Part shown: positions 22,061 through 33,831 of the stretch, piece by piece
How the letters are laid out: the number at the start of each line of letters is the position of its first letter
How positions within the stretch are numbered: the stretch's first letter is position 1
NCBI GenBank assembly: GCA_041555445.1
Contig: JBFFKK010000001.1
Span: 64,418-128,417, forward strand
DNA from: Sulfurimonadaceae bacterium
Lineage (GTDB): Bacteria > Campylobacterota > Campylobacteria > Campylobacterales > Sulfurimonadaceae
Reading direction: 5' to 3'
DNA length: 64,000 nucleotides
Translations under genes and position numbers: made by a program
The notes under the pieces: model-generated
The model's input: only the letters and a program-made list of their open reading frames with translations
What the model was told of the DNA's origin: nothing
Databases searched by the model: none

Positions 22061-23881
22061 TTAAAGCGCCGCTTGTACTCGCTCAACAAGCTTCTCCGGA
22101 CTCAACCCAAGCGAAGCTTCGACCCGCTTGGTATTACCGTGCGTAATGAACGCATCGTCGTACTCGAAACTGGTCAGTTCGATGTTGTTGATCTTTGCAT
22201 CGGCCAGGAACTCGAGGATCGCCGAACCGACCCCGCCCATCTTGGCACTGTCGCTGAAGACGAACCACTTCGTATGCTTTTCTGCCAGCGCTTTTAACAT
22301 CGCTGTATCGAGCGGTTTGACAAAACGCAGGTCAAGCAGGGCGACATCCTCGTCCATCAACGCTGCGGTCTGAGCCGCACGTCCGACACCGTTGCCGTAA
22401 CCGATAAAGAGGATGTCGCCCTCGCTTTCGGCCAGAAGCTGCGCCTTCCCCTCTTCAAAAGGTACGGCCTCCGGAAGGTCTGCCTCCAGAAATGCCCCCC
22501 TCGGGTAGCGCAGCGAAAGCGGGTGGTCATACCGGCTCGCAAACTCTATGGCATGATGGAACGACTTCTCATCCCTCGGCGCACAGAGACGCATGTTCGG
22601 AATGGCGCGCATGAAGCTGACGTCGAATGCCCCCTGGTGCGTCTCGCCATCCTCACCGACCGTTCCTGCCCTGTCCATCGCAAAGACAACCGGCAGATCC
22701 ATCAGACAGACATCGTGGATCACCTGGTCGTAGCCGCGCTGCATAAAGGTCGAATAGATGGTACAAAAAGGCTTGAACCCTTCGGCAGCCAGCGCCCCCA
22801 TCGAGGTCACCGCATGCTGCTCGGCAATAGCGGCATCCCAAAAACGGTCAGGGTACTTCTCAAGCAGTGGCGTCAAGCCGGTACCGCCCGGCATCGCGGC
22901 CGTGACACCGACCACCTTGTCGTTCTTTTCGCAAAGCTCCAGCATCGCTTCGGTGTAGATCTGCGTTGCTGCTTTGGCACCGCTTTTAGGTGCAGCCGAA
23001 CCGCTTTCACGGTCAAACGGGCCGACCCCGTGCCACTTTTCATGCTGGCCTTCGGCGATCTTGTACCCTTTGCCCTTTACGGTCTGTGCATGGATGATCA
23101 CCGGTTTTTTAAGCGCTTTGGCCTTCTCGAAGGTCTCGATAAGAATCTCGAGGTTATGACCGTCTACGGGGCCGATGTACTCGATGCCCAGCTCATCAAA
23201 CAAGATACCCGGGGTGATCAGCTTGAAGGACTCTTCAAAACGTTTGGCAAGATAATGTGCACCCTCGCCGAAATTGTCGACGAACGACTCGGTACGCCGT
23301 TTGAACTTCTGGTAAAACGGGCTTGCCATCGTCGAGGTCAGGATGCGCGACAGCGCTCCGATCGGTTTGGCGATACTCATCTCGTTGTCGTTGAGGATGA
23401 TCACCATCGGATACTTACGGTCACCCAGCTCGTTCATCGCCTCAAAGGCCATCCCCGCCGTGATGGAGCCGTCACCGATCATCGCGACCGGGACACGGCT
23501 CTCCTGTTCGCCTTTGAGTGCGATCGCCTTGGCCGCACCGACCCCGAGAGAGATAGAGGTCGAGCTGTGACCGGCGACAAAGAAGTCGTCTTCCGACTCG
23601 GAAGGTTTTGTATAGCCGCAGATCCCCCCGTACTGACGGAGCGTACTGAATGCATCCCACCGGTCGGTGATCAGTTTATGCGCATACGCCTGATGCGAAA
23701 CGTCAAAGATAAACGGGTCTTTTTTAGAGTCAAAGACCTTATGCATCGCGACGATCAGTTCGGTAGCGCCCAGTGTCGAACTGAGGTGACCGCCGTTGAC
23801 ACTGACCACCTCCAGGATACGTTCACGGATATCACCACAAAGCTTCTGTAGTTCATCTAATGAATATGATGATATGTCCAT
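22061..23881 (-). CDS. dxs: 1-deoxy-D-xylulose-5-phosphate synthase
   Basis: Motifs GGHLSSTLG, DVSHQAY, GHSSTSIS, IGDGSITAGMAFEA and AEQHAV. The start is set to ATG 23881 (MDISSY), which has GAGG 6 nt upstream. The track ORF starts at 23923. Confidence 0.95.
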   Translation of the reverse strand: MDISSYSLDELQKLCGDIRERILEVVSVNGGHLSSTLGATELIVAMHKVFDSKKDPFIFDVSHQAYAHKLITDRWDAFSTLRQYGGICGYTKPSESEDDFFVAGHSSTSISLGVGAAKAIALKGEQESRVPVAMIGDGSITAGMAFEAMNELGDRKYPMVIILNDNEMSIAKPIGALSRILTSTMASPFYQKFKRRTESFVDNFGEGAHYLAKRFEESFKLITPGILFDELGIEYIGPVDGHNLEILIETFEKAKALKKPVIIHAQTVKGKGYKIAEGQHEKWHGVGPFDRESGSAAPKSGAKAATQIYTEAMLELCEKNDKVVGVTAAMPGGTGLTPLLEKYPDRFWDAAIAEQHAVTSMGALAAEGFKPFCTIYSTFMQRGYDQVIHDVCLMDLPVVFAMDRAGTVGEDGETHQGAFDVSFMRAIPNMRLCAPRDEKSFHHAIEFASRYDHPLSLRYPRGAFLEADLPEAVPFEEGKAQLLAESEGDILFIGYGNGVGRAAQTAALMDEDVALLDLRFVKPLDTAMLKALAEKHTKWFVFSDSAKMGGVGSAILEFLADAKINNIELTSFEYDDAFITHGNTKRVEASLGLSPEKLVERVQAAL

Positions 23882-23950
23882 GTTTACCTCATTACTTGGA
23901 AGCGCTGCAGTAACCCTGTTCAAGCGGAACAGGCTTACTGAGCCTCCTCT

Positions 23951-24889
23951 TTATATAGTGCGAATTCTACCATCATCTCTTAGTTGTTCTGCTAAGAGAT
24001 AAAGATTTTCAACCGCATTCCGGCTTTTTGTCAGATCAGAAACGGGCAGTGATGCCATCACTTTTTTAAATTCGCCCGCTGCCTTTGACGACATATTAGC
24101 AAAGAACCTCTCCTGCAACTCTTGTGTTACAGCCGTGAGTGCGAACATAAGGTCTTTTTTATTTACACGGCGCAGGATCTCCTGTATCTCTCTGTTGTTT
24201 AACTGTTGCAAAGCGACACACTCTTTTTGCAGCAGGAAGAACTCTTTGTACAGAGCTCTTTCCAGGCGTGTCAACGCCGCATACGAAACCGGTTCACTGT
24301 TTTCAAGGCGCGCCAGCAGAACTTCCCTCTGCCCCGCATGCATCTGCTCCAATATGTCCAACGCTTTGTTTGGGTCCAGCATCAACACTGTAACCGCCGC
24401 AATTTGAGGGTGCTGCTGATCGAGGTAGCGAAGAGCCTTGTCGGCCGCAGACGCCTCGAGCAGCGCATAGCCATCCCTCGTTTTCAGAGGGGCCGTAATC
24501 AATTCGTCTCTGGCCTTTTTCAACTGCAGGCCAAGCATTTCGCGGCCGCTTGGCGGCCTGTCAACCACAGGCGCCTCCTCTTTCGGTTTGGAGGTCGTAT
24601 CACTCTTTAAATGCTTCTCTTGGGCTAACGGACGTGCCGTCTCATGCAGTGGATCATTCGCAGATAGATAGTAGACGATGAAGGTCGCGGCACTTATAAT
24701 CAGCACTAACAGAAGGTAGATGATATAGATGGCGACATCAACAAAAATGTCGGAGAGGGCCGTCGCTTGCGACAGCTCGGACGTGGCGTAAAGAAGCAGT
24801 AGAAGCGCACCGACAAGAAGTGCCAGTAAGAGCTTTGCGCGTCGTAACAGGAGCTGTTTTACATACTGTACCAACGCTTCTATCTTCAC
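23951..24889 (-). CDS. membrane-anchored FliG-like protein (two N-terminal TM helices plus FliG middle/C-terminal-like domains)
   Basis: 312 aa. TM1 is LLLALLVGALLLLLY and TM2 is VAIYIIYLLLVLIISAATFIVYYL. Then QQHPQIAAVTVLMLDPNKALDILEQMHAGQREVLLARLE (FliG_M/MgtE-N-like) and EILRRVNKKDLMFALTAVTQELQERFFANMSSKAAGEFKKVM...AVENLYLLAEQLRDDGRI (FliG_C-like). Confidence 0.75.
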   Translation of the reverse strand: MKIEALVQYVKQLLLRRAKLLLALLVGALLLLLYATSELSQATALSDIFVDVAIYIIYLLLVLIISAATFIVYYLSANDPLHETARPLAQEKHLKSDTTSKPKEEAPVVDRPPSGREMLGLQLKKARDELITAPLKTRDGYALLEASAADKALRYLDQQHPQIAAVTVLMLDPNKALDILEQMHAGQREVLLARLENSEPVSYAALTRLERALYKEFFLLQKECVALQQLNNREIQEILRRVNKKDLMFALTAVTQELQERFFANMSSKAAGEFKKVMASLPVSDLTKSRNAVENLYLLAEQLRDDGRIRTI

Positions 24890-24906: not shown

Positions 24907-26001
24907 TCAGAGCAGGGAGTCAGCCAGCTCGAAAAAACGGTCGTTTTGTGAAGGTGTACCGATGGTGACACGGATAGCATTCAGACCGTATCCTTTGAGA
25001 TCACGTACGATCATCCCGCGTTCCAGCAGCGCTTGCGCAAGCTCGGAAGCACTTCTTTCGGCATCGAACACCAGGGTGACAAAGTTCGTGAAACTCTCGA
25101 TCACCTGCAGTCTGTGTTTTGCCGCAAAGTCGTTGTAACGGCCCATCTCGTCAAAATTTTTGGCGATGCACTCCTGCACAAAAGGCTCATCGTCAAGGGC
25201 GACCGTTGCCGCCTCTAACGTCAGTGTCGTGATGTTGAACGGCGGACGCAGTTTGTAAAACGCCGTAATGATGTCCGCACGGGCGATGCCGTAACCGACA
25301 CGCATGCCGCCCAGTCCGTACGCTTTGGAGAATGTCCCGAGATAAACGACGTTGTCATAGGCATCGACAAGCTCTTTCGGCGTTACCGATTTGCTCGCAT
25401 CTTTATAACGGGTATACTCCATATAGGCACCGTCGACCACCACAAGGGTCTCGGAATCGATCTTGTCCAAAAACGCTTTCAGTGCATTCGCATCGATGGC
25501 ATCGCCGGTCGGATTGTTCGGTGTACAGATAAAGATGATCTCGGGTCTGTGCTCCAGATAGAGTGCGTAGAACTCGTCAAGATCATGTTCTCTCGATGTT
25601 GTGCGCACGATCTCCGCGCCCACCAGTTTGGCATAGATCTCATACATCGCGAAGGTGATGGAGTTCATCAGGATCTTGGAGCCTTTGGTGGCTTTGGCAT
25701 GGATCGCGAATTCGATCACCTGGTCGCTTCCCGCACCGATGATCAGTTCATTTTCGGCGACGTCAAACTTCCTGGCCAGCGCCGCTTTCAGGTTCATCAT
25801 CGAATCATCCGGGTAGAGGGCCATGTTGCCGATGATCTTGCCGACCGCCGCCTGTACTTTCGGTGAACAGCCGTACGGGTTCTCATTGCTTGCCAACTTG
25901 ACAACGTCTTTGCTCTCTATACCAAAATCGCGAACCACAAGCTCGATCGGCTTGCCCGCTTCATAACTGACGATATCGTCTAAAACCGGATTAAACTTCA
26001 T
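24907..26001 (-). CDS. hisC: histidinol-phosphate aminotransferase
   Basis: 364 aa with LASNENPYG, PNNPTG, GTFSKAYGLGGMRVGY and RVTIG. Confidence 0.9.
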   Translation of the reverse strand: MKFNPVLDDIVSYEAGKPIELVVRDFGIESKDVVKLASNENPYGCSPKVQAAVGKIIGNMALYPDDSMMNLKAALARKFDVAENELIIGAGSDQVIEFAIHAKATKGSKILMNSITFAMYEIYAKLVGAEIVRTTSREHDLDEFYALYLEHRPEIIFICTPNNPTGDAIDANALKAFLDKIDSETLVVVDGAYMEYTRYKDASKSVTPKELVDAYDNVVYLGTFSKAYGLGGMRVGYGIARADIITAFYKLRPPFNITTLTLEAATVALDDEPFVQECIAKNFDEMGRYNDFAAKHRLQVIESFTNFVTLVFDAERSASELAQALLERGMIVRDLKGYGLNAIRVTIGTPSQNDRFFELADSLL

Positions 26002-32847: not shown

Positions 32848-33831
32848 TTACTCCAATTCACTTAAAATTTCTCGAAATGCCTCTTTAAAGGCGTCTAAAC
32901 CATCATCTATCTGCTTGGCAACAACCGCATCGAAATCAATGCCTGCATCAGCTATCTTCTTGAAATGCGCATCGATGATCGTAGCATCCACTGGTAATTT
33001 TACCATTTTATCGCCACCTTTTACAAAAGCGTCGATCGTCTCCACCGGTGCCGTGTTGACAGCGTGTGCCGCCAACAGTTCATCGATGTAGTATGAGGGA
33101 CGAAGGTCATCGCCCTTTACCCCCGTCGATGCAAAAAGTGTTCGACATCGGTCGACCCCTTTGGCTTCGATAGCACTGTAGATCGCAGCCGCATTGTAGT
33201 TGCCCGTCAATGCCGGGGCGATCCCCTTCTCTGCGAGTTCTGCATCCAGAGCCCGGTCGCTCCGGCTGACAAAGACACTGATCACCGTGTCAACACTCGT
33301 ACCACCCGCCTTTTGTCCGCTTTCAAAGGCCTCGGCACACTACAATGCCTGCTCTTTTGAAAAGATCAGCGTTGCATTGACGGGAATGCCTTCAGCTACC
33401 AGTGCCGTCATCGCGCCATAACCTGCCTCCGTTGCCGGCACCTTGATCATGACGTTGGGACGGTCTATCGTCCTGTGCAGACGGAGACCCTCTTCGATCG
33501 TTCCCGCCGTATCATCGCAAAGCATCGGATCGACTTCGATACTGACATAACCGTCATCGCCTGCATCATAGAGCGGACGCAAGATATCCGCCGCCTTTTG
33601 AATGTCAAAGATCGCGAGTGCTTCGTATTTTTCTTTGGCCCCCAGGCCATCGAGCTCCGCCAGCTGTCGTTTGTAGGCGGGCGATGTCAGGATCGCACTT
33701 TTGAAAATCGCGGGATTGGAGGTTGCCCCGTTGATGATCCCGTTTTCGATCAATGTTTTAAACGCGTTATCGAGATAATCGCGTTCTATAAAGTCTGCCC
33801 ATAATGCAAACTTTTCGTCTTTTAAGTACAT
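32848..33831 (-). pseudogene. tal: transaldolase interrupted by a single in-frame TAG (33342-33340)
   Basis: The two track ORFs (33340-33885 and 32848-33285) are in the same frame. Read-through gives ...VNATLIFSKEQAL*CAEAFESGQKAGGTSVDTVISVFVSRSDRALD..., one continuous ~327-aa transaldolase (GATSNPAIF, GYVSIEVDP, MIKVPAT Schiff-base Lys, SVFVSR). The likely start is ATG 33831 (AGGAA upstream). Confidence 0.8.

Follow-up and report, generated by a model that had tools for sequence, protein, structure and literature searches.

A membrane-anchored FliG-like protein at the fliF-fliG-fliH site of Sulfurimonadaceae, probably formed in place by gene reduction

We analyzed a 64,000-nucleotide stretch of the genome of a Sulfurimonadaceae bacterium (assembly GCA_041555445.1, contig JBFFKK010000001.1, positions 64,418 to 128,417 of the forward strand; hereafter, the window), in which a small gene resembling part of the flagellar rotor gene fliG lies between hisC and dxs. 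The coding sequence of this gene, here called mini-FliG, occupies 23951..24889 on the minus strand; it starts with GTG at a position shared by its homologues, encodes 312 amino acids and ends with a TAA stop at 23951-23953. From the N terminus, with all parts on the minus strand, the product consists of a cytoplasmic peptide of net positive charge (residues 1–17, 24839..24889), a transmembrane hairpin (residues 18–78, 24656..24838), a variable, largely disordered linker (residues 79–139, 24473..24655) and two FliG-like modules. The hairpin, defined by hydropathy and AlphaFold2, comprises two transmembrane helices (TM1 and TM2) joined by a short conserved outer loop, while the linker is characterized by low predicted local distance difference test scores (pLDDT) and by poor alignment across the family. 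The first FliG-like module (residues 140–217, 24239..24472), recognized by Pfam FliG_M and Foldseek, resembles the armadillo-repeat (ARM) middle domain of FliG, with QHPQ replacing the canonical EHPQ. The second (residues 218–312, 23954..24238; Pfam FliG_C, Foldseek and hhalign) contains the last ARM_C helix and a domain resembling the C-terminal helical bundle of FliG, and is the best-conserved portion of the protein.

Hydropathy analysis placed the hydrophobic segments at approximately residues 18–37 and 46–78. The AlphaFold2 model, for which 19 family members were used (mean pLDDT 72), has helices at 18–41 and 47–78, a disordered stretch at residues 79–112 (pLDDT <50) and an all-helical C-terminal half. 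The net charge is +4 for residues 1–19 and −3 for the inter-helix loop; together with the hydropathy profile, these values fit a hairpin with both termini inside the cell. The 312-amino acid open reading frame (ORF), the two transmembrane helices, the linker, and the regions resembling the middle and C-terminal domains of FliG had all been proposed in an earlier model-generated reading of the window (hereafter, the original prediction), and translation, hydropathy, AlphaFold2, Pfam and Foldseek bear these proposals out.

The soluble part is FliG-like in a specific sense. In Pfam searches, FliG_C matched residues 227–310 (8.3e-15, 55.4 bits vs a cut-off of 23.3) and FliG_M matched residues 153–217 (4.3e-9, 36.9 bits vs a cut-off of 25), and both domains scored above their cut-offs in 19/19 family members tested. 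The FliG equivalog model of NCBIfam, TIGR00207, gave 70.5 bits and did not reach its cut-off of 226.7. Every match to PDB sequences (13/13) was to a FliG chain, and the top 18 Foldseek matches in the PDB were all FliG (probability 1.0, E ~1e-5), among them H. pylori FliG 116–343 (E 1.3e-5). The M-like module superposed on the FliG_M chains 4fq0_C, 4qrm and 3soh with TM-scores of 0.76–0.84 and root-mean-square deviations (rmsd) of 1.5–2.0 Å, and the C-like module superposed on T. maritima FliG_C (1qc7) with TM-scores of 0.72–0.81 and rmsd of 1.6–1.7 Å.

To our knowledge, no well-known membrane protein other than MgtE, with its N-terminal domain, carries a FliG-like fold; an MgtE-type regulator of Mg2+ sensing or transport could share nothing more with FliG than a generic ARM-repeat fold. 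A match to MgtE_N was indeed obtained for mini-FliG and for 18/19 members, but for mini-FliG it is marginal (27.5 bits vs a cut-off of 25.9), while the mgtE model TIGR00400 gave 5.9 bits vs a cut-off of 232.75. In Foldseek, MgtE structures appeared only at E>1 with probabilities of 0.14–0.6. The transmembrane part of mini-FliG is N-terminal and has two helices, whereas that of MgtE is C-terminal with five helices and is accompanied by CBS domains; neither CBS domains nor a C-terminal five-helix pore was found in mini-FliG by Pfam and AlphaFold2. The locus, moreover, is a former fliF-fliG-fliH site (see below). We conclude from the profile, PDB-sequence and Foldseek matches that the similarity is FliG-specific and not MgtE-like, and consider the MgtE alternative effectively refuted.

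When the soluble part of mini-FliG was aligned by hhalign with FliG of Sulfuricurvum, whose gene occupies the corresponding locus, a match of 99% probability was obtained to FliG residues 108–332, about two-thirds of the rotor protein. The beginning of this match at residue 108 bears out the original prediction of a FliG lacking its N-terminal domain, FliG_N, which is the domain that binds the C-terminal tail of FliF. Pfam matches to FliG_N in 12/19 members were considered as a possible remnant of this domain and rejected, since they overlap the M-like domain and are explained by ARM-repeat paralogy: the located matches cover residues 163–265 and begin inside the M-like domain, and hence there is no separate N domain in the family. 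The alignment with Sulfuricurvum FliG also contains a single 42-residue gap, at approximately residues 190–231, where FliG has its Gly-Gly hinge (GGPR), flanked by the last part of the M-C helix and the first helices of ARM_C. This ~42-residue internal deletion is a further loss that had not been anticipated.

Functional motifs of FliG are changed as well. EHPQR is the canonical FliM-binding motif of FliG; in the mini-FliG family Q159, H160 and P161 are nearly invariant, the Glu of the motif is replaced by Gln, and the Arg is not conserved. As the charged residues of the torque helix we take R281, D288, D289 and R297 of E. coli FliG. The equivalents of D288 and D289 are K276 and V277, which vary across the family; R281 corresponds to K269, a Lys in close members that is lost in divergent ones (SAHT, SPKT, SPQT); and the R297 equivalent also varies. 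Compared with canonical FliG (H. pylori 3USY, T. maritima FliG-MC 1LKV and the Sulfuricurvum protein), mini-FliG thus shares the FliG_M ARM fold with its HPQ, the C-terminal bundle and the genomic site, but lacks FliG_N and the hinge with the first ARM_C helices, does not conserve the MFXF motif or the Arg of EHPQR, and has two transmembrane helices of its own.

A word-indexed search recovered 33 mini-FliG clusters at 90% identity (281–323 amino acids), and when 1.84 billion representatives were searched exhaustively with an HMMER profile, 19 proteins were recovered at E<1e-30, corresponding to ~17 full-length clusters at 50% identity (245–321 amino acids) plus two of the three clusters of truncated stubs described below. 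Canonical FliGs rank below these, at no more than 113 bits, each being matched by HMMER in three separate stretches. Weakly matching candidates from Halioglobus and other metagenomic contigs (L013, L014, L025, L028) were rejected as members because they are ordinary adjacent fliF-fliG pairs. All full-length members have a common architecture: a positive N-terminal peptide, TM1, the outer loop with TM2, a variable linker, the M-like module with QHPQ and the C-like module. The C-like module bears a highly conserved signature, KKELMFALKG.TQELQEKFFANMS. Also among the best-conserved parts is a motif that runs from the outer loop into the beginning of TM2, TS.LSQ.T.LSD..VD (residues 36–51, window 24737-24784); S40 and D51 are the same in all of 20 diverse members, and T36, S37 and Y58 in nearly all. 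Such strong conservation of this segment is unexpected for a passive membrane anchor.

With one genome considered per GTDB species, mini-FliG was found in only nine species, all of them uncultured Sulfurimonadaceae or 'Helicobacteraceae' metagenome-assembled genomes (MAGs). Databases label the protein as 'FliG C-terminal domain-containing protein', 'hypothetical protein' or even 'flagellar motor switch protein FliG', and these current labels could make a non-motile organism look flagellated. Literature searches found no published description of the family. Mini-FliG is a new architectural variant of the known FliG family, one with an unusually clear reductive history.

This history can be read at the locus. 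Pfam analysis agrees with the gene order recognized originally, L25-pth-lptF-lysA-HAD-pheA-hisC-X-dxs, where X is mini-FliG. The upstream operon neighbour, hisC (24907..26001, minus strand; Pfam Aminotran_1_2 and synteny), lies 17 nt from the start of mini-FliG, and the downstream neighbour, dxs (22061..23881, minus strand; Pfam DXP synthase domains), begins 69 nt past its stop. The latter distance incorporates a revised start: the longest dxs ORF opens at a TTG at 23923, but homologue lengths of 606–607 amino acids make the ATG at 23881 (MDISSY, preceded by GAGG) the most likely start.

The corresponding loci of relatives were reached via Dxs homologues, and all share the wider synteny. Three of them have the order hisC-fliF-fliG-fliH-dxs, in line with the claim that mini-FliG sits where fliF-fliG-fliH normally do: Sulfuricurvum sp. 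MLSB (L016; Dxs 77% identical to that of the window; fliF 573 amino acids, fliG 341 and, at the fliH position, a 230-amino acid gene without a Pfam match), Sulfurimonas paralvinellae (L017; Dxs 77%; fliF 568, fliG 341, fliH 259) and a Campylobacterota MAG (L032; Dxs 79%; fliF 574, fliG 342, fliH 263). A fourth locus, L031 (Dxs 81%), has a fliF of only 411 amino acids, a full fliG (340 amino acids) and, instead of fliH, a 131-nt gap. The mini-FliG clade, which includes the window, follows with Dxs identities of 85–99% and a mini-FliG of ~300–320 amino acids, while Sulfurimonas sp. HSL3-7 (L015; Dxs 90%) has an 86-amino acid ORF. The arrangement hisC-mini-FliG-dxs was seen in every mini-FliG locus recovered, about 20 from genomes, metagenomes and exact look-ups; it holds even for members only 33–41% identical to that of the window, whose HisC and Dxs are 73–91% identical to the window's.

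Spacing is preserved along with order. The gene following hisC starts 15–22 nt from it everywhere, whether that gene is mini-FliG or fliF; mini-FliG ends 2 nt before dxs in L001–L003, and in S. paralvinellae 1 nt separates the end of fliH from dxs. No minus-strand terminator-like site was found between mini-FliG and dxs; the 3' end of mini-FliG contains a weak promoter-like site. Judging from the spacing, mini-FliG would be co-transcribed with pheA, hisC and dxs.

Both fliF and fliH are gone from the native site in all mini-FliG carriers recovered. In the same clade lies a cultured organism, Sulfonitrofixus jiaomeiensis HSL3-7, which is non-motile and has no flagellar genes (PMC12403661); Sulfonitrofixus and Thiomicrolovo are both described as non-motile, and the HSL3-7 genome is 2.87 Mb with a GC content of 48.7–49.7% (PMC12403661). 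The GC content of the window is 50.4%. Since HSL3-7 is nested among the carriers (100% support; see below) and the native fliF and fliH are gone, ancestral loss of flagella is the parsimonious view, and the sulfur-oxidising lineage carrying mini-FliG has probably lost them, which lends indirect support to the flagella-less lineage that had been supposed. A quite different proposal would make mini-FliG an accessory or paralogous FliG of a working flagellum, with a normal fliF-fliG-fliH elsewhere in the genome. The conserved HPQ of the FliM-binding motif would fit this, but the native site is without fliF and fliH, the protein has neither the torque-helix charges nor the hinge, and HSL3-7, from the same clade, is non-motile and without flagellar genes. 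Nor did any recovered locus contain both mini-FliG and fliF: the ~20 mini-FliG loci have no flagellar neighbours, and the gene is absent from every flagellated relative sampled. We regard this proposal as very improbable. Mini-FliG cannot act as a rotor, since the ring-building domains of FliF, FliG_N and fliH are missing and both the hinge and the torque charges are lost.

Intermediates between the full and the reduced locus can be ordered. In L031 (JGI 3300057032, Ga0568849_0001213; L031:5615-7869), FliF has suffered in-frame deletions of its periplasmic ring-building regions (105–213, 317–334 and smaller blocks, in Sulfuricurvum numbering), while it retains both transmembrane helices (TM1 and TM2) and the tail at the C terminus that binds FliG. 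The FliG of this locus is full-length and has Pro instead of the key torque-helix Arg (NMAQPAR). Eroded FliFs of this kind form three clusters, of 410, 411 and 444 amino acids. Four smaller deletion blocks are common to them and the large one is nested (126–209 within 105–213), a pattern that indicates progressive in-frame erosion. The L031 locus has a GC content of 54%, nearer to that of the non-motile genus Thiomicrolovo (57%).

A maximum-likelihood tree from concatenated Dxs, HisC, PheA and LysA gave a ladder of S. paralvinellae, Sulfuricurvum and L032, all with full fliF-fliG-fliH, then L031 with the eroded genes, then the mini-FliG clade (100% support). HSL3-7 falls inside this clade as sister to the mini-FliG-bearing L011/L012/L022 group, again with 100% support. 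Its ORF (L015:9723-9983, CP147919), located between hisC and dxs, encodes the C-terminal quarter of mini-FliG, and its nested position means that mini-FliG is older than HSL3-7 and that the stub is a secondary truncation. The states are therefore ordered from full fliF-fliG-fliH, through eroded fliF and fliG without fliH, to mini-FliG and finally to the stub. Consistently, the mini-FliG profile slightly favours the phylogenetically nearer FliGs (106 and 105 bits vs 98 and 95). The view that the gene is a deletion derivative formed in place is, by the shared synteny and the ordering in the neighbour-gene tree, strongly supported.

Sequence evolution was analyzed by the ratio of nonsynonymous to synonymous substitution rates (omega, dN/dS). 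Across 10 taxa the maximum-likelihood omega was 0.38 for mini-FliG, compared with 0.072 for hisC and 0.046 for dxs, and omega=1 was rejected for mini-FliG by 128.5 log-likelihood units (2*delta-lnL = 257). Pairwise dN/dS ranged from 0.15 to 0.58 for mini-FliG, being 0.39 between the window and its closest relative, L018, and from 0.02 to 0.15 for dxs, hisC, pheA and lysA. By region, all four parts of the protein gave ~0.2–0.6 in most pairs, with the hairpin and the M-like module at 0.2–0.3 in most. Every full-length member recovered has an intact ORF; in a neutral simulation at the divergence between the window and L004, just 5e-5 of mini-FliG copies remained open. Given an omega of 0.38 and the rejection of omega=1, we conclude that mini-FliG is protein-coding and under weak purifying selection, and is neither a pseudogene nor a neutral relic. 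This selection supports retention in a non-flagellar role, as suggested in the original prediction, a view tempered by repeated truncation in some lineages. As to expression, only one metatranscriptome contains a 151-nt contig within mini-FliG and another contig in hisC, a trace too thin to serve as proof.

Exact-protein look-ups across the window led to two near-identical relatives, L018 and L019. In the comparison between the window and the 99%-identical L018, all 10 amino acid replacements in mini-FliG fall in residues 132–225 (24215-24496), which cover the M-like module and the hinge. The same pair has no replacements in the hairpin or the C-like module, and 0–1 each in hisC, pheA, HAD and T2SSE. 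Relaxed constraint confined to this region, diversifying selection or recombination over a short patch could each account for this cluster of changes.

The best explanation of these results, and in our judgment a probable one, is that mini-FliG is a reduced, membrane-anchored descendant of fliF-fliG-fliH formed in place. The deletions, in frame and at the native site, would have taken place in the ancestor of a clade of Sulfonitrofixus-like Sulfurimonadaceae that abandoned flagellar motility, and would have left a two-helix hairpin, most likely the FliF transmembrane helices minus the periplasmic ring domains, followed by a disordered linker and by FliG from approximately residue 108 minus the ~42-residue piece. 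The present protein may serve as a membrane-tethered docking module with a FliG fold, positioning a non-flagellar partner at the inner membrane. Conservation of the outer loop and TM2 and of the cytoplasmic C-terminal bundle suggests specific contacts, and these parts would be the ones to touch the docking partner. Some lineages would manage without such a role, their gene having been shortened to stubs of 86–99 amino acids.

Several results speak against this explanation or parts of it. In a FliG tree, the mini-FliG family forms a single clade at the end of a long stem that attaches with a support of only 0.10; further, the top canonical matches of the mini-FliG profile are not Campylobacterota-like, Sulfurimonadaceae FliG ranking ~31–36 of 133. 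Loss of flagella, probable for the lineage, is for the window's own genome a conclusion that we infer. The N-terminal 80–140 residues, compared with four FliFs including an eroded one, gave nothing significant by BLASTP, hhalign or hidden Markov model (HMM) searches: the hhalign probability of a match between the hairpin and FliF was 0.1%, and the HMM matches were collinear and only transmembrane to transmembrane, with E of 0.02–1. No Pfam FliF domain (YscJ_FliF, YscJ_FliF_C) matched mini-FliG. In a permutation test against FliF, p was 0.40 for the N-terminal peptide (MDFKALFSQL vs MNIEVLSQHL) and 0.07 for TM2; a z-score of 4.5 for TM1 was discounted as arising artificially when hydrophobic blocks are shuffled. 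Protein identity between the window and L004 is 78% for mini-FliG and 97–99% for its neighbours, and evolution of the gene is 5–8 times more relaxed or faster than theirs. In the L011/L012 lineage, omega rises to 0.58 overall and to 0.75–1.0 in the N-terminal part and linker; mini-FliG is on its way out in this subclade, the sister of stub-bearing HSL3-7. Truncation to stubs has happened repeatedly, so any function of mini-FliG is weakly constrained. Finally, the docking role is read from conservation and is, to us, tentative.

The results on the N-terminal region bear on where the hairpin came from. The soluble part could derive from the resident fliG while the hairpin arose de novo, from a linker or out-of-frame sequence, or was captured from a membrane gene. 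This would account for the lack of significant FliF similarity over residues 1–140 in four relatives, the closest eroded FliF included, and for the absence of a clear FliF counterpart of the motif TS.LSQ.T.LSD..VD. The distance of the start from hisC equals that of fliF, however, and the topology is that of FliF minus its periplasmic part; the sister lineage L031, moreover, displays in-frame erosion of precisely the periplasmic part with TM1 and TM2 kept. Short, fast-evolving transmembrane segments are not expected to stay detectable; even eroded FliF is only ~34% identical to normal FliF. We therefore view a non-FliF hairpin as unlikely, if a serious competitor. Hence the identification of the hairpin with the FliF helices, as first put forward, agrees with topology, with the hisC-adjacent position and with the erosion in L031, but is not upheld by significant sequence tests; an origin from FliF TM1 and TM2 is likely but unproven.

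Truncation and fast evolution raise another question, whether the protein does anything. The three stub clusters (86–99 amino acids; P0186, P0187 and P0191) retain only the C-terminal quarter of mini-FliG and score 99–131 bits with the profile. The HSL3-7 stub carries M248I, L251E and R304G at family-invariant positions and L303P at the nearly invariant L303, and with such changes the stubs look like decay products, perhaps kept for their position next to dxs, although they may instead be expressed small proteins. P0186 bears the C-terminal signature of the L011/L012 subgroup, which implies that truncation occurred at least twice. In P0187, the C-terminal module seems to follow immediately on a TM2-like segment (MIYLLVLFLGAIGAM).

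All stubs retain the 3' end adjoining dxs, and dxs is an essential gene. Mini-FliG could accordingly be a relic of operon polarity, a protein without a role whose frame is kept open for read-through or translational coupling into dxs, any residual constraint reflecting avoidance of toxicity or misfolding. The tight operon spacing, the lack of a terminator-like site before dxs, and the fact that every reduction step seen is in frame fit this proposal, as do the dxs-adjoining ends kept by independent stubs, an omega that is high relative to the neighbours, and the repeated truncation itself. But omega lies far below 1, the difference being strongly significant (2*delta-lnL = 257), and is as low as 0.2–0.3 in the hairpin and M-like domain in most pairs. 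Polarity alone, furthermore, does not predict the invariant or nearly invariant polar residues S40, D51 and Q159-H160-P161, all distant from dxs. Both FliG-like domains fold confidently and superpose on FliG at 1.5–2 Å. We consider a polarity relic rather improbable. If true, it would provide a clear case of essential-gene polarity shaping gene decay.

We hold with reasonable confidence, by contrast with a roleless protein, that mini-FliG has some protein-level function. A true exaptation, in which a rotor fragment is kept for a flagellum-independent purpose, such as a membrane or polar docking site for a machine or regulator, is a narrower claim and falls short of an even chance; the particular docking-module role described above is slightly more doubtful again. 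Were exaptation true, mini-FliG would be without precedent, outside the MgtE lineage, as a FliG-derived protein working in a non-flagellar role, and the lineage with eroded FliF and FliG, together with the stubs, would be a stepwise record of a rotary-motor part dismantled and re-used. Mini-FliG makes the FliG M and C modules candidates for an activity independent of the flagellum.

Comparable arrangements have been made in the laboratory. A FliF-FliG deletion-fusion in Salmonella enterica that lacks the major part of FliG_N is still motile (reviewed in PMC7355467), from which it follows that covalent tethering can replace the contact between FliG_N and FliF; rings built from FliF-FliG fusions have been described in Vibrio (PMC10941966, PMC11481574; PDB 8Z4D). 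Like these fusions, mini-FliG places membrane segments and then FliG on one polypeptide, and like the Salmonella construct it is short of FliG_N. The laboratory fusions, however, keep the MS-ring part in the periplasm complete, build C rings and are motile, whereas mini-FliG has no ring-building domains and its FliF origin is unproven. As their natural counterpart, mini-FliG shows rotor parts surviving without selection for torque. In Lysobacter enzymogenes, homologues of flagellar type III secretion proteins are reported to control twitching in the absence of a flagellum (PMC7277350, PMC7688988). As described there, flagellar components are likewise selected after loss of the flagellum, implying a new role; Lysobacter keeps a near-complete set of export-apparatus genes, while mini-FliG is a single rotor protein remodelled by in-frame deletions.

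Rotor-base proteins of Campylobacterota can also serve outside motility. In C. jejuni, both the MS ring and the switch complex contribute to the division role of FlhG through FliF, FliM and FliN, and a fliG mutant has little or no minicell phenotype (PMC3228812). This precedent makes a non-motility role a candidate reason for retention of mini-FliG, but FlhG-dependent polar control of cell division was downgraded as that reason, given that C. jejuni requires FliF, FliM and FliN, but not FliG, for this process (PMC3228812).

Flagellar loss is common, and its intermediate steps are rarely visible. Here, a single locus holds an ordered natural series of dismantling that tracks the species tree, with a cultured non-motile organism inside the clade.

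Elsewhere in the window, a transaldolase gene (32848-33831, minus strand) is interrupted by one in-frame stop at codon 165 (33340-33342), which is a Ser codon in the 99%-identical L018; the remainder of the gene is intact. The stop is either a recent nonsense mutation or an error in the assembly consensus.

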